A stretch of DNA of 10,946 bases from a virus. The notes under the pieces are model-generated. The model was not told the origin of the DNA. It saw only the letters and a program-made list of their open reading frames with translations, and made no database searches. Shown here in pieces: positions 975 through 10,445 of this stretch; the first letter of the stretch is position 1, and each line of letters opens with the position of its first letter. A program made the translations under genes and the position numbers. The stretch is taken from UHGV virus genome UHGV-0116491; one strand, 5' to 3'.

Positions 975-1001
975 GAAAACCCGCCTGAAGGCGGGTTTTT
1001 T
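975..1001. terminator. Bidirectional rho-independent terminator for the converging + and - transcripts
   Basis: Stem CCCGCC (980-985), loop TGAA, stem GGCGGG (990-995), flanked by an A-run upstream and T6 downstream. It sits between the stop of the 783..956 gene and the stop of the minus-strand gene at 1004. Confidence 0.8.
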
Positions 1002-1003
1002 CT

Positions 1004-5601: not shown

Positions 5602-5964
5602 TTAATGACCTGCTGCGCGGAGTTTTCCGTCAGGTTCACCGGCAAGAGTCAGTAATTGTCCCTGGTCTTCCTGCAGAATAGTCAGGCGACCACCGCGATT
5701 GACATACATCGGCGTTTCGGTGGTGTCTTCTTCGGAAATTTTCCCGCGGTTAGTCGGGCGAACATATGAGAGTTTGTGTTTTATTTTCACACGGTTCTCA
5801 TCAAACGGTTCGATTTCCAGGTTGAGCGAGACCTTACCTTTGGTTTTCGTGTTCATCACACCGGAAGCGACTTCACTGAGAACTGCGCCGATTTTGGTTT
5901 CAAATACGCCGCCGTCCAGCTCCCCGATAAATGCCTGCACATCAGTACTGCGTTCGCTAGCCAT
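5602..5964 (-). CDS. yfdP: YfdP-like hypothetical protein (120 aa), first gene of the early-left operon
   Basis: ATG at 5964 (MASERSTDVQAFIGELDGG...) with GAGGAG 8 nt upstream. The track's 197-aa version begins at an upstream start with no SD and runs through the large inverted repeat. Confidence 0.7.
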   Translation of the reverse strand: MASERSTDVQAFIGELDGGVFETKIGAVLSEVASGVMNTKTKGKVSLNLEIEPFDENRVKIKHKLSYVRPTNRGKISEEDTTETPMYVNRGGRLTILQEDQGQLLTLAGEPDGKLRAAGH

Positions 5965-6012
5965 TTTGCTGCTCCTCATCATATCGACCCTGCAAGGTCG
6001 GTTGGTTTCTCC

Positions 6013-6101
6013 ACAAAACAGAGAAGAACACCTGCGGTGGCAGCCGCCCGGATGGATTGGGTTATGAGCCCGTCGTCCGGTGATGCTCTTCTCTGTTTTG
6101 T
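6013..6101 (-). repeat. 15-bp perfect inverted repeat enclosing a 59-nt loop, forming a large hairpin just upstream of the yfdP-like RBS
   Basis: ACAAAACAGAGAAGA (6013-6027) and its exact reverse complement TCTTCTCTGTTTTGT (6087-6101). Possible RNase III or translational-control element. Confidence 0.6.
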
Positions 6102-6147
6102 AAAAAGAGCGGTACCAGCCGGAAGCAAGTGTACAAACTGGTACCGC
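6101..6147 (-). terminator. Intrinsic terminator inside the early-left leader (tL1-like)
   Basis: On the minus strand: 10-bp perfect stem (GCGGTACCAG / CTGGTACCGC; plus 6138-6147 and 6109-6118) with a 19-nt loop, followed by UCUUUUUA. Confidence 0.5.
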
Positions 6148-6564
6148 CAACGCAGTGGCTGTTGTGGTGGGGTTGTCACTTAGGCGTATGGTCAACCTGA
6201 CAATCCGGTGTCCTCAACGGGGAAAGAGTAACCCCGCCATACTTACCGCCGCGCCATTTCGCGGATTACCACAACGCTGAGAGCACTTAGCCAGTTACGG
6301 CACCACACTTTGTCGCGGTTCCATAAATGCCCTCATCGTTGCACCCTGGTCTCTTCCCAGGCGTCAAACCGAATCGCCACGCTGGTTAGGCGTCTTATCA
6401 GCATCCTCATTGACTTGCACATTCCGGCTACCTGGTTTGTTTGCCCGAGCAAGGAGTGGATTGTCCCCTTTAACGTCCCCAGACCGCTAACGACGCATGT
6501 GCCATACGCCGTGTTACAACCAAATTTTGTTAGTACCTTGTTTGTAGGTCTGGAGAGAAAGATA

Positions 6565-6615
6565 AAATGAAGTTGCGCATTATGCAAGTATTTTATTGCG
6601 AGATATGCAATTTGG
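6565..6615 (-). promoter_or_regulatory. OL operator pair and putative leftward early promoter (pL)
   Basis: Two 15-mers of the form TTGCG-N6-GCAA (6573-6587 TTGCGCATTATGCAA; 6596-6610 TTGCGAGATATGCAA) spaced 23 bp apart; the same form recurs at OR. TTGCAT and CATAAT-like hexamers lie on the minus strand, but exact -35/-10 spacing is unresolved. Confidence 0.5.
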
Positions 6616-6666: not shown

Positions 6667-7359
6667 TTAATTGTGTCGCTTAAGGGTCTGTGACTGACTG
6701 ATTAAGACCTTTCCAAAGACCATAAACCGGTGTTCGTTTTCGCTGGTAATTCCCCATTCGCGGTAAATCTGATTATCAGAAATTACCAGCAGTTTATCAG
6801 GTATCATTTGCAGTCGTTTGACGTAAATTTTATCATCAAAACCAAATACATATATACCATCCCCATCAAACTGATTGATACTGATATCAACGAAGATGAG
6901 ATCTCCTGGCTCAATGGTTGGACACATACTGTCCCCACGAACGTTGATAACTTTAATGTGATTTGCTGGTCGTCCACCAAACATCGATACAGCATTATCA
7001 GTTCTGTATTCAATGGCATGAATCACATCAATGACATCACCGCCCTGGATAAGGCCATTTCCCGCACTGGCACTGACATCCAGCATTTCAATACGGAATA
7101 CATCCTTCACCTGCGCAACATCCTCACTAATACTGTTTTTACATACAGTATTACTTTTGAGGTCTGAGGTAAAGAGATCAGCAATATCAACACCTAAGCT
7201 CCTGGCAATATTACTCAGGGCTTGTTCAGTGAATTGTTTCTGCTTACCTGTTTCGAGGCGCGAGATATTCGCCGCATCCACTCCTATTGCTTCAGCGAGA
7301 TCGGCGATTTTCATGTTCTTCGCCTGGCGAAGTTGTCTGACTCGATTTCCTATGTTCAT
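6667..7359 (-). CDS. cI: CI-type prophage repressor: N-terminal XRE-family HTH plus C-terminal S24 (LexA-like) autopeptidase, 230 aa
   Basis: HTH region IADLAEAIGVDAANISRLETG; Ala-Gly cleavage site (SASAGNG); GDSM serine motif and downstream KRL lysine; divergent from a Cro-like gene. Confidence 0.9.
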   Translation of the reverse strand: MNIGNRVRQLRQAKNMKIADLAEAIGVDAANISRLETGKQKQFTEQALSNIARSLGVDIADLFTSDLKSNTVCKNSISEDVAQVKDVFRIEMLDVSASAGNGLIQGGDVIDVIHAIEYRTDNAVSMFGGRPANHIKVINVRGDSMCPTIEPGDLIFVDISINQFDGDGIYVFGFDDKIYVKRLQMIPDKLLVISDNQIYREWGITSENEHRFMVFGKVLISQSQTLKRHN

Positions 7360-7456
7360 GCGTTTATTACATTTCTTTATTGCGCGTTAAGCAAATCAAC
7401 TTGCGCAAAATATTTGCGTGAAATAATATGCTCATCACGCAATATGTGGAGGTTAT
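7360..7456. promoter_or_regulatory. OR region with divergent pRM (leftward) and pR (rightward) and operator-like repeats
   Basis: pR candidate: TTGCGC (7401-7406), 17 bp, TAATAT (7424-7429). pRM candidate on minus: TTGCTT (7394-7389), 17 bp, TGTAAT (7371-7366), ending 6 nt before the cI ATG with no SD. Operator-like TTGCGCGTTAAGCAA (7380-7394) and near-palindrome CGCAAAATATTTGCG (7404-7418). Confidence 0.55.
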
Positions 7457-7717
7457 ATGCAATCACCATTACGGAATGTGCGTAAGGCGCACGGATTTAC
7501 TTTGCAGCATGTTGCTGCGGGCGTTCAGGTCAATCCAGCGACGCTGAGTCGTATTGAAAGACTGGAACAAATTCCATCTATCGATCTTGCAGAACGTCTG
7601 GCCAATTTTTTTAAGGGTGAAATCAGCGAAATGCAGATTCTTTATCCGGCACGTTTTCAATCTAGCCAAAACCAGAATGGGTTTAAACCACAGGAACAGG
7701 AGGTAAGCCGTGGGTAA
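7457..7717 (+). CDS. cro: Cro-like HTH regulator (86 aa)
   Basis: ATG at 7457 with GGAGG 5 nt upstream; HTH region FTLQHVAAGVQVNPATLSRIER; divergent from the repressor gene. Confidence 0.8.
   Translation: MQSPLRNVRKAHGFTLQHVAAGVQVNPATLSRIERLEQIPSIDLAERLANFFKGEISEMQILYPARFQSSQNQNGFKPQEQEVSRG
7469..7669 (-). CDS. This -strand reading frame runs 201 nt (66 codons) without a stop; no product assigned
   Basis: An open frame of 201 nt on the - strand, long enough to be a gene and not just a gap between stop codons; no ribosome-binding site or similarity was checked. Confidence 0.3.
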   Translation of the reverse strand: MARLKTCRIKNLHFADFTLKKIGQTFCKIDRWNLFQSFNTTQRRWIDLNARSNMLQSKSVRLTHIP

Positions 7718-8261
7718 GCATCATTGGAAAGTGGAAAAACAACCCGAGTGGTACGTGAAAGCTGTCAGAAAAACTATCGCGGCATTGCCTAGGGGTTACG
7801 CTGAAGCTGCTGACTGGCTGGATGTAACAGAGAACGCTTTATTCAACCGCCTTCGTGCAGATGGCGATCAGATTTTCCCGCTGGGATGGGCAATGGTTTT
7901 ACAGCGCGCGGCTGGCACTCACTACATTGCGGATGCTGTCGCACAGTCTGCTGGTGGGGTGTTCGTATCGCTTCCTGAAATTGAGGAAGTAGAGAACGCC
8001 GATATAAACCAGCGCCTGCTGGAAGTCATCGAACAGATCGGGAATTACTCAAAGCAGATTCGTTCGGCAATCGAAGATGGGGTCGTGGAGCCACACGAGC
8101 AGACAGCAATTAATGATGAGTTGTATCTGTCAATTTCGAAGCTCCAGGAGCATGCAGCACTGGTCTACAAAATCTTCTGCGCTCCAGAAAAGAGTGACGC
8201 CCGCGAGTGTGCAGCTCCGGGCGTCGTGGCGTTTTGTGTCTGTGGAGAAACTAACGCATGA
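7710..8261 (+). CDS. CII-like phage regulatory protein (YdaT/CP76-like), 183 aa, GTG start
   Basis: GTG at 7710 with GGAGG 6 nt upstream, overlapping the Cro-like stop; position (third gene of the rightward operon) and size match CII/YdaT-type proteins; family assignment from memory. Confidence 0.65.
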   Translation: MGKHHWKVEKQPEWYVKAVRKTIAALPRGYAEAADWLDVTENALFNRLRADGDQIFPLGWAMVLQRAAGTHYIADAVAQSAGGVFVSLPEIEEVENADINQRLLEVIEQIGNYSKQIRSAIEDGVVEPHEQTAINDELYLSISKLQEHAALVYKIFCAPEKSDARECAAPGVVAFCVCGETNA

Positions 8262-8862
8262 ACAGTTTAACGGCAAATAACCGTTTGTCGCAACAGCTGG
8301 TGGTCAGTGTCGCTGAACACCTGTTGTTACGGCATGAATGCAGATTACCAAATCACTTGGCTGTAAGTAACCACAGAGAACTTTACCTGACTGTGGGGGG
8401 CGAGTTGTGCAGGAACTTAACCGCTGGTTTCGTGACGGAAGAGGGCTTTATGTCCATGTTATTCGTTGGGAGCCAGAAACACAGCGCGTTATCTATCTTC
8501 GCAAAGACTACCCGCATGAGTGCTTTAGTCCTTTGTGGAAATTCAGGCGTGATTTTGTTGAGTGTGAAGGACCACCAGCACATTGATTCTGCCATTCCGG
8601 GACGTTACACTGTTCAGGCACCTTATAAAGCGGGTGCCGGGCGTGGAAACCCGGAATTCACCAAAGCGCACAACCGCGCTCTTGCGGTTTTTTTGTGTAA
8701 TGAGCAGCATTACGCCCAAATTATGGTGGGGCGTGCAGGGCCAACTTCGGTTGGGCCGGGTTCTTTGGTGACCGGTATTTCCACCCCTGTACGTCTCACC
8801 ACCAATAAGGTCGTGGAAAGCCTTGGTGGTGAGTTATTAAAAATCACCAAAGAGGCTGCCAT
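8258..8862 (+). CDS. Unresolved ORF that overlaps the CII-like stop (ATGA) and runs in-frame into the Rha gene with no stop; either an N-terminal extension (full ORF 8258..9409, 383 aa) or a frameshifted / dual-coding segment
   Basis: ATG at 8258 with GGAG 10 nt upstream. Codon usage in 8585-8862 is strongly coding-like (all five Arg codons are CGT/CGC; ACC x6, GGT x5). No recognisable domain. Confidence 0.35.
8407..8586 (+). CDS. Alternative -1 frame ORF (59 aa, GTG start) inside the unresolved segment
   Basis: GTG at 8407, 6 nt after a G6 run; product VQELNRWFRDGRGLYVHVIRWEPETQRVIYLRKDYPHECFSPLWKFRRDFVECEGPPAH is protein-like, with 6 of 8 Arg codons CGT/CGC. Just under the ORF-track length threshold. 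Confidence 0.3.
   Translation: MQELNRWFRDGRGLYVHVIRWEPETQRVIYLRKDYPHECFSPLWKFRRDFVECEGPPAH
8672..8694 (+). terminator. Terminator-like hairpin plus T-tract inside the unresolved segment; contains a boxA-like CGCTCTT
   Basis: AACCGC-GCTCTT-GCGGTT followed by T5 (T7 in total); CGCTCTT at 8677-8683. Lies inside a frame that looks coding, so it may be coincidental. Confidence 0.3.
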
Positions 8863-8863
8863 C

Positions 8864-9409
8864 ATGGCTACGATCCCAACCCTCACTCAACCTGAAATTG
8901 CCATCGTTGATGGTCAGGCTGTTACTTCATCCTTGGCTGTTGCCAACTTCTTCTCCAAACGTCATGACGATGTACTGAAAAAGATCCGCACGCTTGAATG
9001 CTCTGCATCATTCACTTCCCGCAATTTTTCGGTGAGTGATTACACCGATTGCACAGGCCGCAAACTACCTTGCTATCAAATAACCCGCGACGGCTTTGCG
9101 TTTCTTGCTATGGGTTTCACGGGTAAACGTGCTGCCCAGTTCAAAGAGGCATACATCAATGCCTTTAACCAGATGGAGAAACAGCTTTCAAATCCCTCTG
9201 TACTGAGCGACGTTGCACATAACGCCAGCGTTCTCTATTCCTACATTTCATCAATTCATCAGGTCTGGCTGCAGCAGCTTTATCCTATGTTGGCAAAAGC
9301 CGAATCTCCGCTGGCTGTTAGCTTGTATGACTATATTAATGATGCTTCGGCGCTGGCCTGCCTCATAAATTTGTCGCTGAATCCTTCAGAGGTAAGGGGG
9401 CGCAAATGA
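8864..9409 (+). CDS. rha: Rha-family phage regulatory protein (181 aa)
   Basis: ATG at 8864 with AGAGG 8 nt upstream; N-terminal region (FFSKRHDDVLKKIRTLECSASFTSRNFSVSDYTDCTGRKLPCYQITRDGFAFLAMGFTGKRAAQFKEAYINAFNQME) matches the Rha domain pattern as I recall it, in its usual N-terminal position. Confidence 0.7.
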   Translation: MATIPTLTQPEIAIVDGQAVTSSLAVANFFSKRHDDVLKKIRTLECSASFTSRNFSVSDYTDCTGRKLPCYQITRDGFAFLAMGFTGKRAAQFKEAYINAFNQMEKQLSNPSVLSDVAHNASVLYSYISSIHQVWLQQLYPMLAKAESPLAVSLYDYINDASALACLINLSLNPSEVRGRK

Positions 9410-9630
9410 TCCGGAATATTTTCAAACGGTTTACCAATCAGACTTTCCGTTGTCCTCGTCCGGGTCAGTGGTACACCACACCTGCAGGACATGTTCTACG
9501 TGTTAGCCTGGTTGACCGTGAATGTCAGAAGGTGATTTGTGAACCGCTGGGCCGTAATTACCGCGTCAGTATGCCGCTTATAGCCTTTCGCTCCGGAAAA
9601 AACATGAAGCATCTCGGAGGTGCTGCATGA
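9406..9630 (+). CDS. Small hypothetical protein (74 aa)
   Basis: ATG overlaps the Rha stop (ATGA) and its own stop overlaps the next ATG (ATGA); consistent with translational coupling. Confidence 0.55.
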   Translation: MIRNIFKRFTNQTFRCPRPGQWYTTPAGHVLRVSLVDRECQKVICEPLGRNYRVSMPLIAFRSGKNMKHLGGAA

Positions 9631-10445
9631 GTATGGAGCTGATGGTTAAAGCGATGAAAATTCGAGTGGGTAATCCATTGCGAAAACTGGTTCTGATCAA
9701 GCTGGCTGATAATGCCAGCGATCAGGGGGAGTGCTGGCCCAGCTACCAGCATATTGCTGACCAGTGCGAGATTAGCAAACGTTCTGTGATGAATCATATT
9801 GCGGCCCTTTGTGAGTCCGGGCTAGTAAAAAAAGTCACTCGGAAAGGTGAAAAAGGTAACTCAAGTAATATCTATCTCCTTCATCTGGATGGTGCAGGAG
9901 ATTCACTAGGGGGTAGTGCAAATAATTCACTATCTGGTGCAGCAAATTCACCAGGTAGTGCAGGAGTTGCACCAGGGGGTAGTGCAGGAGATTCACCCAG
10001 AACCAGTCACTCTTTTGAACCAGTCAAAGAACCAGTCAATGAACCAATAGCTGTTGGTGCATCTGCTGATGAGTCTGTGCGAGTTCGTTCAAACCGACCG
10101 GAATACTCTCCGGAGTTTGAGCAGGCATGGCTGGCATATCCCAAACGTGCTGGTGGCAATTCAAAATCTGCAGCCTTCAAAGCCTGGAAAGCCCGTTTGA
10201 ATGAGGGGGTAAATCCCGAAACCATGCTGGAAGGTGTGAAACGCTATGCGGGCTGGGTATCTGCGATGGGTAACAGCGGCACACAATTTGTGAAACAGGC
10301 TGTCACGTTCTTTGGTCCGGATCGTCATTTCGAAGAATCCTGGGAAGTTCCTGCGGTATCTGCAGCCAGACGTGAGGACCCGTACTTCAAAGCCAGTTAC
10401 GACAACGTGGACTACAGCCAGATCCCGGCAGGATTCAGGGGGTGA
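9627..10445 (+). CDS. Lambda O-like replication initiator (N-terminal HTH), 272 aa
   Basis: N-terminal winged-HTH-like region (LRKLVLIKLADNASDQGECWPSYQHIADQCEISKRSVMNHIAALCESGLV); iteron-like direct repeats embedded mid-gene, as in lambda O. Confidence 0.75.
   Translation: MSMELMVKAMKIRVGNPLRKLVLIKLADNASDQGECWPSYQHIADQCEISKRSVMNHIAALCESGLVKKVTRKGEKGNSSNIYLLHLDGAGDSLGGSANNSLSGAANSPGSAGVAPGGSAGDSPRTSHSFEPVKEPVNEPIAVGASADESVRVRSNRPEYSPEFEQAWLAYPKRAGGNSKSAAFKAWKARLNEGVNPETMLEGVKRYAGWVSAMGNSGTQFVKQAVTFFGPDRHFEESWEVPAVSAARREDPYFKASYDNVDYSQIPAGFRG
9891..10038. repeat. Iteron-like direct repeats with internal dyad symmetry, then 3.5 tandem GAACCAGTCA units; candidate replication origin inside the O-like gene
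   Basis: 16-mers RGTGCAGSARWTKCAC at 9891-9906, 9936-9951, 9957-9972 and 9981-9996 (each GTGCA...TGCAC); GAACCAGTCA at 10000-10009, 10017-10026 and 10029-10038. Confidence 0.6.

Follow-up and report, generated by a model that had tools for sequence, protein, structure and literature searches.

In the rightward early operon of a lambdoid phage, several hairpins and a terminator-like element are crowded into about 130 nt between the cII-like gene and rha, which raises the question of what this cluster does. An earlier note, made from the sequence alone, had described a hairpin at 8633–8662, the element AACCGC-GCTCTT-GCGGTT with a T-tract and a boxA-like CGCTCTT, and a UUCG tetraloop hairpin, and had offered two readings: a regulated terminator or antitermination site inside or beside coding sequence, comparable to lambda nutR/tR1, or coincidence. 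The window analyzed here (the whole stretch of 10,946 nt) is phage mEp460, which is lambdoid. All three elements were located in the sequence as claimed, and their position after the cII-like gene and before rha and the O-like gene was correctly given. The cluster is very probably the RNA core of a secondary immunity module of the P4/P1 type that controls rha, an antirepressor-type gene, in mEp460.

Two known regulatory RNAs account for the hairpins

The module is of an already known type, with two phage regulatory RNAs, one IsrK/seqA-like, from the Hfq-binding isrK family, and the other C4/CI-like. Both the isrK and the C4 model of Rfam exceeded their gathering thresholds in mEp460, adjacent and on the same strand (Table 1); these scores put the set far beyond chance, and the option of coincidence was discarded. 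The same models found the pair in N15, P4 and F004, and more weakly in P1. GenBank entry LC710661 already carries an isrK/C4 annotation of such a pair, and IsrK–C4 systems in lambdoid prophages have been noted (PMC3632133). The parts follow in the order promoter, a1, b1, terminator, C4-like RNA (with a' and b'), a2, b2 and rha, which is the layout of P1 immI, P4 immunity, N15 immA and the Gifsy-1 IsrK locus. When the structure of the whole module was tested, 97.7% of cells were paired, against about 42% with the partners slid, and 19 pairs had changed on both sides, against 6.1 in shuffles, a value reached by none of 500 shuffles.

Table 1. Features of the hairpin cluster and the genes around it in the mEp460 window
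Feature	Position	Strand	Details
Long eta-like ORF (GenBank mEp460_041, "regulatory protein Rha")	8258–9409	+	383 codons; ATG overlaps the stop of the cII-like gene (ATGA)
DUF4222 gene	8407–8586	+	59 aa; Pfam DUF4222, E 9.5e-14; phrog_1343, E 1e-36; in another frame inside the long ORF
Putative internal sigma-70 promoter	8583–8611	+	Read from sequence: -35 TTGATT 8583–8588, 17-nt spacer, -10 TACACT 8606–8611
IsrK/P4 seqA-like RNA	8618–8694	+	Rfam RF01394, 67.0 bits (gathering 50), E 6.3e-13, full-length match 1–77
a1 target site	8643–8649	+	GUGGAAA; loop of IsrK hairpin 2; 7-nt perfect complement of a'
b1 target site	8658–8666	+	UCACCAAAG; single-stranded linker; 9-nt perfect complement of b'
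Intrinsic terminator	8672–8694	+	Stem AACCGC 8672–8677/GCGGUU 8684–8689, loop GCUCUU 8678–8683, seven U; dG -7.9, z -2.6
C4/P4 CI-like antisense RNA	8719–8806	+	Rfam RF01695, 83.6 bits (gathering 45), E 1e-15
AUG at 5' end of C4-like RNA	8723–8725	+	In frame with the rha ATG, no stop between; 47-codon extension
b' recognition sequence	8762–8771	+	UCUUUGGUGA; 12-nt loop of C4 hairpin 2
a' recognition sequence	8778–8784	+	UUUCCAC; unpaired, between hairpin 2 and outer stem
a2 target site	8813–8819	+	GUGGAAA; 3' of C4-like RNA; 7 nt complementary to a'
b2 target site	8844–8853	+	UCACCAAAGA; 10 nt complementary to b'; overlaps rha SD AAGAGG 8850–8855
Nested rha	8864–9409	+	181 aa; Rha/Bro-network regulator, putative antirepressor; Pfam Phage_pRha, E 4.5e-31; phrog_821 and anti-repressor PHROGs

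The putative internal promoter matches 8 of 12 consensus positions, which is under the scan threshold. Its -10 hexamer ends 7 nt 5' of position 8618, where the Rfam isrK match begins and near which the start of transcription is predicted. In alignment, both hexamers fall in the same columns as those of the annotated P1 promoter P1c4/P51b, and as the TATAGT of the P4 promoter PLE. The consensus promoter scan missed this promoter as well as pR, each at 8 of 12 positions, and so cannot be used to argue that a promoter is absent between the terminator and the O-like gene.

The IsrK-like RNA is predicted to form two hairpins (8618–8623 with 8632–8637, and 8638–8641 with 8650–8653 around an 8-nt loop), followed by a linker and the terminator. 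Compensatory changes were seen in five of the six pairs of hairpin 1, and an alignment of 16 modules showed conservation of the hairpin 2 core, the terminator stem core and the T run. The first hairpin of the earlier note consists of GGTG (8633–8636), CCGGG (8637–8641), the loop CGTGGAAA (8642–8649), CCCGG (8650–8654), AATT and CACC (8659–8662). Its coordinates were exact, but the outer GGTG/CACC arm is probably not a native pairing: in the family GGUGC (8633–8637) pairs with GCACC (8618–8622) instead, and CACC belongs to the variable b1 site. The note had called all of these hairpins stable. In a shuffle test this held for the C4 part, the terminator and the UUCG hairpin (z -4.1, -2.6 and -3.0, respectively), but the 30-nt first hairpin (z -1.1) and the IsrK part (z -1.0) were unremarkable in fold energy, so that support for the IsrK-like RNA comes from the covariance model and covariation, not from thermodynamic stability.

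The element with the T-tract proved to be a real intrinsic terminator, as judged by its sequence, by a terminator scan that picked it up independently and by the invariance of its stem core and T run across the 16 diverse modules, in which the loop varies. Changes in the helix are only one-sided, and the pairing is therefore backed by conservation and not by covariation. The element aligns with the P4 terminator GACGCGCCACGCGTCTTTTTTT, corresponding to P4 t1, and by homology with t1 a 3' end would form there and the efficiency of termination may be regulated. An automated terminator search over the IMG/VR loci, with a count of 32 of 70, was unreliable, the wrong T run being chosen in several.

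The tetraloop hairpin, placed by the note at about 8738–8760, is likewise real; it lies at 8741–8754, with the UUCG at 8746–8749, and is part of the C4-like RNA recognized by Rfam. This RNA folds into an outer stem of 17 bp (8724–8740/8785–8801) that encloses the UUCG hairpin and hairpin 2 (8755–8776). The minimum free energy fold (-44.6 kcal/mol) coincides with the model structure, none of 200 shuffles folded as well, and 19 of 27 pairs carried compensatory changes among 57 sequences. An unpaired CCA (8802–8804) stands directly 3' of the outer stem, and CACCACC is nearly invariant in the C4 family. A tRNA-like stem followed by CCA would be compatible with excision of the RNA by RNase P; Hartmann et al. 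reportedly described RNase P processing of P1/P7 C4 in 1995. Conservation in homologues had been suggested as a check on the hairpins and on CGCTCTT. Far from drifting freely, which would have refuted the note's reading, the stems are kept through compensatory changes. This supports an RNA function, of the IsrK/C4 kind. CGCTCTT, by contrast, varies.

Recognition sequences co-vary with their target sites

The C4-like RNA of mEp460 carries two recognition sequences, a' and b', each complementary to one site upstream and one downstream of it (Table 1). Complementarity was tested over 70 unique C4 loci, among which 27 versions of a' and 46 of b' occur, counting a match as at least 7 nt. Matches at a1 were found for the cognate recognition sequence in 96% of the loci and for non-cognate sequences in 1.2%; the corresponding values were 61% and 1.5% for b1, 90% and 2.0% for a2, and 83% and 1.5% for b2. 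Across the 70 loci, a' and b' thus co-vary with their own target sites. The cognate value for b1 is the weakest and some relatives keep a1, a2 and b2 with a poor b1, which makes the role of the upstream sites the least certain step of the mechanism.

The b2 site overlaps the Shine–Dalgarno sequence of rha, which ends 8 nt before the rha ATG, and its geometry resembles that of the annotated P1 b2 site ahead of icd. rha is the first gene with a ribosome-binding site of its own 3' of the internal promoter, and holds the position of kil in P4. The context of its Shine–Dalgarno sequence and ATG, GAGGCTGCCATCATGGCTAC, is common to F004, and the peptide EAAIMAT around its start is common to P4 Eta. 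Genes downstream of other C4 loci are of the antirepressor type (Derepression, Rha, Bro-N, P22_AR and ORF6N), and by homology Rha of mEp460 may act as an antirepressor.

A long reading frame is kept open across both RNAs

The long ORF spans the internal promoter, the IsrK-like RNA, the terminator and the C4-like RNA, and continues in frame into rha. The terminator thus does lie within an ORF, as one of the readings in the earlier note had it; the regulation assumed there would follow by homology to P4 t1, and Nus/N antitermination was unsupported (see below). In the 606 nt 5' of the rha ATG, the long frame contained no stop in any of nine phages (83–100% identical), against 11–16 and 6–12 stops in the other two frames, and only 2 of 20,000 dinucleotide shuffles were free of stops. 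All indels in this frame among the nine phages were of 3 or 6 nt. On this sequence evidence the long frame is kept open by selection.

Codon-position bias was absent from the long frame upstream of rha in the nine phages. Substitutions per codon position within 8587–8863 were 13/18/11, 17/16/18 and 12/15/13, without bias toward the third position. The only codon signal upstream came from the DUF4222 gene, in which 17 of 24 substitutions among the nine phages fell at its own third codon positions; the stop of this gene overlaps the -35 hexamer of the internal promoter.

A second start was examined within the same frame. The AUG at the 5' end of the C4-like RNA sits at the start position of Gifsy-1 orf45 (8618 + 106 = 8724), the first AUG of orf45 having been placed at +107 from the IsrK start (PMC4825925). 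The frame of this AUG stayed open as far as the start of the downstream gene in 41 of 51 loci and the other frames did so in 19 and 10, a difference that is partly confounded by conserved RNA sequence and can be taken only as suggestive. Looking upstream, 44 of 61 loci had 40 or more open codons in this frame, and the other two frames reached that length in 14 and 12 loci.

These observations bear on a rival account, in which the module is a translational repressor only, as in P1: rha translation would be blocked by the C4-like RNA, the terminator would do no more than close off a decoy RNA, and the long ORF would be an artefact of annotation that contributes nothing to readthrough. The contact of b' with b2 over the Shine–Dalgarno sequence is the best supported of all, with 10 nt here and the cognate match across loci given above; P1 immI is described in this way in its GenBank annotation, and amino-acid constraint is absent from the long-ORF product. 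A frame of 202 stop-free codons in nine diverged phages, with indels in multiples of three, an ATGA junction and so few equally open shuffles, speaks against an artefact, as does the homologous P4 eta, which is reported to be translated and thereby to prevent termination (PMC10111431, where the eta/kil/CI/seqA model of P4 is summarized). We consider a repressor-only module unlikely.

The opposite account, that the segment is purely protein-coding, encoding the "Ash domain" of a 383-aa Ash-Rha protein with incidental hairpins, fared worse. One long CDS is annotated in both GenBank and RefSeq, its frame is kept open, and the Pfam Phage_ASH profile matches aa 117–213 of the long-ORF product (E 2e-15). 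The same profile, however, picks up the N15 "cA" CDS and the old "cI" CDS of P4 as well, and each of these lies over a C4/CI-like RNA; the products of these two genes were later shown to be RNAs. Third-position bias was lacking throughout 8587–8863, variation there tracks base pairing and trans-complementarity, and the sole upstream codon signal belongs to another frame, that of DUF4222. As far as the sequences tell, conservation in 8587–8863 is at the level of RNA and not of amino acids, and a purely coding segment is highly improbable. The further idea that Ash is a spurious protein family was softened, since eta in P4 is a genuine long ORF that covers the same RNAs and the mEp460 frame is kept open.

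The boxA-like heptamer is very unlikely to mark a nut site

The lambda nutR/tR1 analogy of the earlier note, with its expected dependence on NusB/NusE, was not supported. According to it, CGCTCTT would be a boxA at which NusB/NusE and an N-like factor modify RNA polymerase to pass the terminator ending near 8695. Like nutR/tR1, the locus has a terminator in the early rightward operon, past which transcription has to go if the replication genes are to be expressed; the heptamer is indeed present just 5' of that terminator, at 8677–8683, and a hairpin with a 5-nt loop (GTAATG-AGCAG-CATTAC, 8696–8712) follows 13 nt downstream. The heptamer, however, occurs at chance frequency, twice in the window against 1.19 expected, and at least twice in 63 of 200 shuffles. 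It is composed of the last base of the terminator stem (C8677, paired) and the 6-nt loop, so that in the predicted fold it is not an accessible single-stranded boxA. Nor is it conserved: CGCTCTT was found only in copies essentially identical to mEp460, the nearest relatives (L009, L072 and L028) have CGCTCAT, and N15, P4, F004 and others have the loop CGCGCCAGCG or another one, those of N15, P4, P1 and F004 being unrelated to CGCTCTT, while stem and T run are invariant. A conserved boxB was absent downstream, the T run following directly after the heptamer hairpin; the 8696–8712 hairpin, the only one there, is broken in the same three relatives, and 92% of columns in the spacer around it are variable. 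Pfam and PHROG profile searches recognized no N-like gene within the window, and two Rfam families account for the whole segment. On motif frequency, lack of conservation and lack of a conserved boxB, the nut reading was rejected as having very little chance of being right, and the way past the terminator is likely to be translation through it together with RNA–RNA pairing rather than modification of RNA polymerase by Nus factors.

Proposed operation of the module

In a lysogen, the internal promoter would start untranslated transcripts near 8618, most of which would end at the terminator, giving an IsrK/seqA-like RNA of about 77 nt that carries a1 and b1. Readthrough transcripts would contain the C4/CI-like RNA, which may be excised from them with RNase P forming its 5' end. 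Its a' and b' loops could then pair with a2 and b2 on the mRNA, and because b2 covers the Shine–Dalgarno sequence, rha would stay untranslated and downstream expression low. Pairing of a'/b' with a1/b1 probably adjusts the switch. Termination could become stronger, as happens at P4 t1, and the C4-like RNA could also be titrated by free IsrK-like RNA, in the way that orf45-anrP is activated by IsrK in Gifsy-1. The published signs are opposite, seqA being required for P4 immunity and IsrK acting as an activator in trans in Gifsy-1.

During lytic growth, transcripts from pR would enter the module with ribosomes on them, by way of the 383-codon frame that is coupled to the cII-like gene. Ribosomes translating this frame probably disrupt the terminator and the RNA pairings, and with these melted, pR transcription would reach rha and the replication genes regardless of immunity, as reported for P4 eta/kil. 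We put forward, tentatively and as a possibility that we rate a little below even, that the early rightward operon of this large group of lambdoid phages is gated by a frame for the transit of ribosomes: 202 codons, which are coupled to the cII-like gene and overprint DUF4222 and two RNA genes, would be kept free of stops without amino-acid constraint. The sole job of the frame would be to carry ribosomes past the terminator of the immunity module and past the sites targeted by C4, allowing transcripts from pR to arrive at rha and the O/P-like replication genes.

Comparison with known systems

P4, whose immunity region comprises the promoter PLE, seqA, the terminator t1, the CI RNA, seqC and the nested genes eta and kil, is among the closest known systems. 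Its isrK and C4 matches stand in the same order on one strand, and the two loci can be aligned at the -10 hexamer of the promoter, in the loop of the a1-type hairpin, along the b1 linker, at the terminator and its T run, and over the C4 fold. Each phage has a long ORF that starts 5' of the internal promoter, directly adjoins the gene before it and extends across both RNAs; a shorter gene nested within it starts at a common EAAIMAT motif. P4 eta (8767–8168) spans seqA and CI and abuts ORF88, and its product aligns with that of the mEp460 long ORF across the RNA region (E 4e-10). The gap between seqA and CI, however, is about 107 nt in P4 and 24 nt in mEp460, a' is UUCUCAC in place of UUUCCAC, and P4 carries kil (65 aa) as its nested gene, with replication genes after it, where mEp460 has a Rha-domain protein. 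Whereas P4 is a satellite phage, mEp460 is lambdoid, with an upstream promoter that is presumably pR and with DUF4222 overprinted on the long ORF.

P1/P7 immI shares the order of promoter, a1, b1, c4 (a', b'), a2, b2 and the ribosome-binding site of the first gene. Its C4 belongs to the same family, its cargo is of the antirepressor type, b2 lies just before the first gene (overlapping the Shine–Dalgarno sequence in mEp460), and Ant1/Ant2 are likewise in-frame nested products. In P1 isrK scores 35 bits, below threshold, and c4-a1b1 is above it, whereas mEp460 has isrK at 67 and c4-a1b1 at 22.6 bits; P1 also has a separate icd between b2 and ant, and its cargo is Ant1/Ant2 rather than a Rha-domain protein.

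Gifsy-1, for which the IsrK/orf45 (STnc1160)/anrP mechanism and the analogy with seqA/CI have been described (PMC4825925), is a lambdoid prophage with a short terminated IsrK that has a readthrough isoform; downstream, according to the same paper, a processed RNA overlaps a short ORF whose AUG lies about 107 nt from the IsrK start, and an antirepressor-like gene comes next. There orf45 is a separate ORF of 45 codons coupled to anrP, whereas the equivalent frame of mEp460 is fused to rha. That paper stresses activation by IsrK in trans via alternative folds, and raises a C4/CI-like role for STnc1160 only as a possibility (PMC4825925).

In N15 immA, whose cA RNA controls the antirepressor operon, isrK and C4 are above threshold, a' and b' match both target pairs, and the old "cA" CDS corresponds to the frame of the C4 AUG and matches Pfam Ash, as in mEp460. 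N15 has other recognition sequences and another cargo (antA/icd/antB), and its prophage is a linear plasmid. The one N15 sequence examined has the C4-AUG frame closed one codon upstream, so that an eta-like long ORF is not evident there.

Implications for lambdoid phages and Stx prophages

The cluster is explained by two curated RNA families and should not be counted among candidate sites of antitermination. Although the module is very common, it is almost never annotated as RNA: it was found in 1,367 of 5,426 complete E. coli genomes (about one-quarter), Stx-converting phages included, and at these loci the RefSeq annotation consists of a long "Rha family" CDS alone. An "Ash domain" of unknown function is listed in regulatory regions of Stx phages (PMC8951638), and it coincides with these RNA genes. 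Should the ribosome-transit reading hold, conservation of the RNA would have produced the Pfam "Ash domain" as a side effect, making it no protein domain, and the principle of P4 eta would extend to lambdoid replication control. The a' and b' variants (27 and 46 in 70 loci) define immunity specificities, which could predict cross-talk between co-resident prophages, including antirepressor control that influences Stx-phage induction.

Identification of an IsrK-C4 module in phage mEp460

The window was identified as phage mEp460 (JQ182728, 100% identity). The three structures flagged in the earlier note, two hairpins and a terminator, were all present at the coordinates it gave, and in GenBank a single 383-codon CDS (8258-9409, 'regulatory protein Rha') passes through them. 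An Rfam scan of the window gave two full-length matches over curated thresholds, adjacent and on the plus strand. The first, isrK Hfq-binding RNA (8618-8694, 67.0 bits, threshold 50, E 6.3e-13), takes in the first hairpin and the terminator; the second, C4 antisense RNA (8719-8806, 83.6 bits, threshold 45, E 1e-15), takes in the UUCG hairpin. The C4 part folded as in the model structure (dG -44.6 kcal/mol, z -4.1). Folding stability of the IsrK part was not unusual (z -1.0), and it is the covariance model and comparative data that support this part. IsrK-C4 is a known element, and mEp460 carries one more copy of it. Elsewhere in the window, a strong intrinsic terminator (AAAACCCGCCUGAAGGCGGGUUUUUU, 976-1003, plus strand) gave several weak sub-threshold Rfam matches (rnk leader, P9, sroH, RNAI), which most likely reflect the terminator hairpin only.

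The anatomy of the module was established by aligning mEp460 with P1 (in which immI is annotated in detail), N15, P4, Stx phage F004 and eleven IMG/VR relatives. On this basis, the 8-nt loop of the first hairpin is the a1 target and its AATT-CACC arm the start of b1; a1/b1 (upstream) and a2/b2 (downstream) are complementary to the recognition sequences a' and b' of the C4-like RNA. A likely pR (TTGCGC-N17-TAATAT, 7401-7429) agrees with the consensus at 8 of 12 positions and was not picked up by the promoter scan.

Features of the mEp460 early region and its IsrK-C4 module
Feature	Position	Detail
cI-like repressor gene	6667-7359	minus strand
cro-like gene	7457-7717	
CII/CP76-like (cII-like) gene	7710-8261	
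DUF4222 gene	8407-8586	frame differs from long ORF
Putative internal promoter	-35, 8583-8588; -10, 8606-8611	TTGATT; TACACT; aligns with P1c4/P51b of P1
IsrK hairpin 1	8618-8637	
First flagged hairpin	8633-8662	GGTG-CCGGG-(CGTGGAAA)-CCCGG-AATT-CACC
a1	8643-8649	GUGGAAA; within 8-nt loop of IsrK hairpin 2
b1	8658-8666	UCACCAAAG; within linker after IsrK hairpin 2
Terminator	8672-8694	AACCGC-GCTCTT-GCGGTT and T run; also found by terminator scan
Spacer		24 nt, between terminator and C4-like RNA
UUCG-loop hairpin	8741-8754	
b'	8762-8771	UCUUUGGUGA; loop of second hairpin of C4-like RNA
a'	8778-8784	UUUCCAC; unpaired stretch after second hairpin of C4-like RNA
a2	8813-8819	GUGGAAA; downstream of C4-like RNA
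b2	8844-8853	UCACCAAAGA; overlaps Shine-Dalgarno AAGAGG, 8 nt before rha ATG
rha (Rha-domain gene)	ATG 8864	good Shine-Dalgarno sequence
Small ORF	9406-9630	
O-like replication gene	9627-10445	
PerC-like gene		last in listed gene context

Pairing between the C4-like RNA and its targets

The conserved C4 core, used as a pattern against IMG/VR, was found at 120 loci. Among them were 70 unique C4-like modules, in which a' has 27 variants and b' 46. A match was scored when a locus's own a' or b' was perfectly complementary to a target site over 7 nt or more; as a non-cognate control, loops and flanks were paired across loci differing in recognition sequences. Cognate matches were found at a1 in 96% of loci (non-cognate pairs, 1.2%), a2 in 90% (2.0%), b1 in 61% (1.5%) and b2 in 83% (1.5%); in mEp460 the complements span 7, 7, 9 and 10 nt, respectively. 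This cognate matching amounts to co-variation in trans and shows mutual recognition of loops and targets, a pattern with which mEp460 agrees. Compensatory changes were seen in 19 of 27 C4 pairs (57 sequences). Over the complete module, aligned for 16 diverse sequences, paired cells made up 97.7% versus ~42% with partners slid, and two-sided changes occurred in 19 pairs versus 6.1 in shuffles (0/500). The variety of a' and b' points to numerous immunity specificities; the upstream b1 site is probably less constrained. Recognition sequences were also shuffled among relatives of mEp460: L009 has the same a' as mEp460 and a different b', with a b1 match of 5 nt only; L072 combines the b' of L009 with another a'.

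Assessment of a lambda-like antitermination site

The earlier note had likened the region to lambda nutR/tR1, with CGCTCTT as a boxA core, and had named NusB/NusE dependence of readthrough as a test. Neither the analogy nor the NusB/NusE prediction is supported: the heptamer occurs near its expected frequency (two in the window, 1.19 expected), the flagged copy (8677-8683) is the terminator's final stem base plus loop, the loop varies among relatives (GCTCAT in the closest; CCAG or unrelated in N15, P4, F004 and many IMG/VR loci), and no conserved boxB lies 3' of CGCTCTT in the aligned relatives. The terminator stem core, T run and following GTGT were invariant in the aligned sequences. The cII-like gene starts at 7710, within the cro-like gene (end 7717), leaving no room between them for a nutR as in lambda. 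What is borne out of that interpretation is a regulated terminator within an early-operon ORF, the structures lying inside the long ORF; the remainder is not.

The other CGCTCTT of the window (CGCTCTTTTTAC, 6111-6100, minus strand) looks more boxA-like than the flagged copy. It sits 3' of the cI terminator and a likely pL, within ~600 nt that would form a leftward early leader (about 5965-6580, minus strand; segment of interest 6010-6111), and continues directly into an almost perfect stem of ~23 bp (dG -51.5 and z -4.9 for the 121 nt folded). The putative leader had no match in the Rfam scan of the window and is overlapped by a plus-strand ORF (5776-6183, phrog_3651). The cdtI, Ayreon and Stx2c phages share it at 99% identity, and their IsrK/C4 region has only 74-90% identity to that of mEp460.

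The stop-free frame and the Ash domain

The long-ORF ATG (8258) overlaps the cII-like stop codon (ATGA). The 606 nt from there up to the rha start codon contain no stop in the annotated frame, in mEp460 and in eight other phages (83-90% identical over this stretch); the remaining two frames hold 11-16 and 6-12 stops, and only 2 of 20000 dinucleotide shuffles were stop-free. All indels among the nine phages were of 3 or 6 nt. Among these phages, substitutions showed no codon-position bias in the long-ORF frame and none whatever in the RNA region; at 8407-8586 the bias belongs to the DUF4222 frame, whose third positions take 17 of the 24 substitutions. The 8258-8863 frame is stop-free yet without amino-acid constraint, and DUF4222 is overprinted in another frame. 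In a wider set of 61 loci, the frame of the C4 5'-end AUG stayed open 40 codons or more upstream in 44, versus 14 and 12 for the other frames.

Pfam Phage_ASH (PF10554) is, judged from its matches, a conceptual translation of the RNA genes. It matches 8606-8897 (amino acids 117-213 of ORF 8258-9409), its positions 1-48 corresponding to the putative promoter -10 and IsrK-like RNA and 49-94 to the C4-like RNA. Further matches are the N15 'cA' CDS (L002:413-712) and the old P4 'cI' CDS (L125:8168-8584, minus strand), each lying over the C4/CI-like RNA. Ash was listed as a domain of unknown function in a 2022 paper on Stx-phage regulatory regions (PMC8951638).

Comparison with known systems and proposed mechanism

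The isrK and C4 pair is present as in mEp460 in N15, P4 and F004, the GenBank record of the last having 'isrK' and 'C4 antisense RNA' annotated side by side; P1 has the pair, but with a sub-threshold isrK score. The P4 eta ORF (8767-8168, NC_001609) starts beside ORF88, the same arrangement as for the mEp460 long ORF, and spans seqA (isrK match 8692-8615) and CI (C4 match 8507-8420). Its nested gene is kil, that of mEp460 rha. The Eta product aligns with the mEp460 ORF over the RNA region, and EAAIMAT around the nested start is common to both. The ST64B record notes its homologue's similarity to 'P4 ORF199'.

Elsewhere, C4 modules were mostly followed by genes of antirepressor type (Derepression family, Rha, Bro-N, P22 antirepressor, ORF6N). 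Of 49 genes directly following C4-like RNAs in IMG/VR, two encode a Tad2-like (Thoeris anti-defence) domain, and one IMG/VR locus had a large helicase/intein protein in place of an antirepressor; C4-type control is therefore not limited to antirepressors.

In P1, going by its annotation and reportedly by Citron and Schuster in 1990, C4 RNA binds a2 and b2 by base pairing, which prevents translation of the first gene and thereby antirepressor expression. Earlier accounts had noted IsrK-C4 systems in lambdoid prophages (PMC3632133; PMC10111431) and APSE phages (PMC7313666). For P4, PMC10111431 and PMC4825925 describe how CI-seqA interactions cut short the constitutive internal-promoter transcripts, whose processing yields CI, and how eta translation from an upstream promoter prevents termination. 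In Gifsy-1, IsrK is a short terminated RNA; readthrough yields an inactive mRNA together with STnc1160, a processed RNA overlapping orf45, and IsrK in trans activates orf45-anrP translation (PMC4825925).

From these mechanisms a model is proposed for mEp460, observed directly as far as the geometry of the ribosome-binding-site overlap. In the lysogen, the internal promoter would give IsrK-like RNA (ending at 8692-8695) and some C4-like RNA, which would mask the rha ribosome-binding site; a1/b1 pairing may modulate termination or titrate the C4-like RNA. Transcripts from pR would be translated along the module and thereby escape it. Inferred for mEp460 are where the RNAs end, processing by RNase P, the sign that the IsrK effect has, and that readthrough depends on translation.

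Prevalence and annotation

Megablast with the 301-nt module matched 1367 of 5426 complete E. coli genomes, with 545 records at at least 99%; 744 genomes held at least 80% of the module. Among the matches listed (e.g. NZ_AP022351 429870-430170), no ncRNA was annotated over the module, the only features being 'Rha family phage regulatory protein' and 'DUF4222 domain-containing protein'. What value the finding retains lies in this widespread mis-annotation, RefSeq having only a Rha-family CDS over the module; in a frame free of stops yet otherwise unconstrained; and in the coincidence of Phage_ASH, treated in the literature as a domain of unknown function, with the RNA genes.
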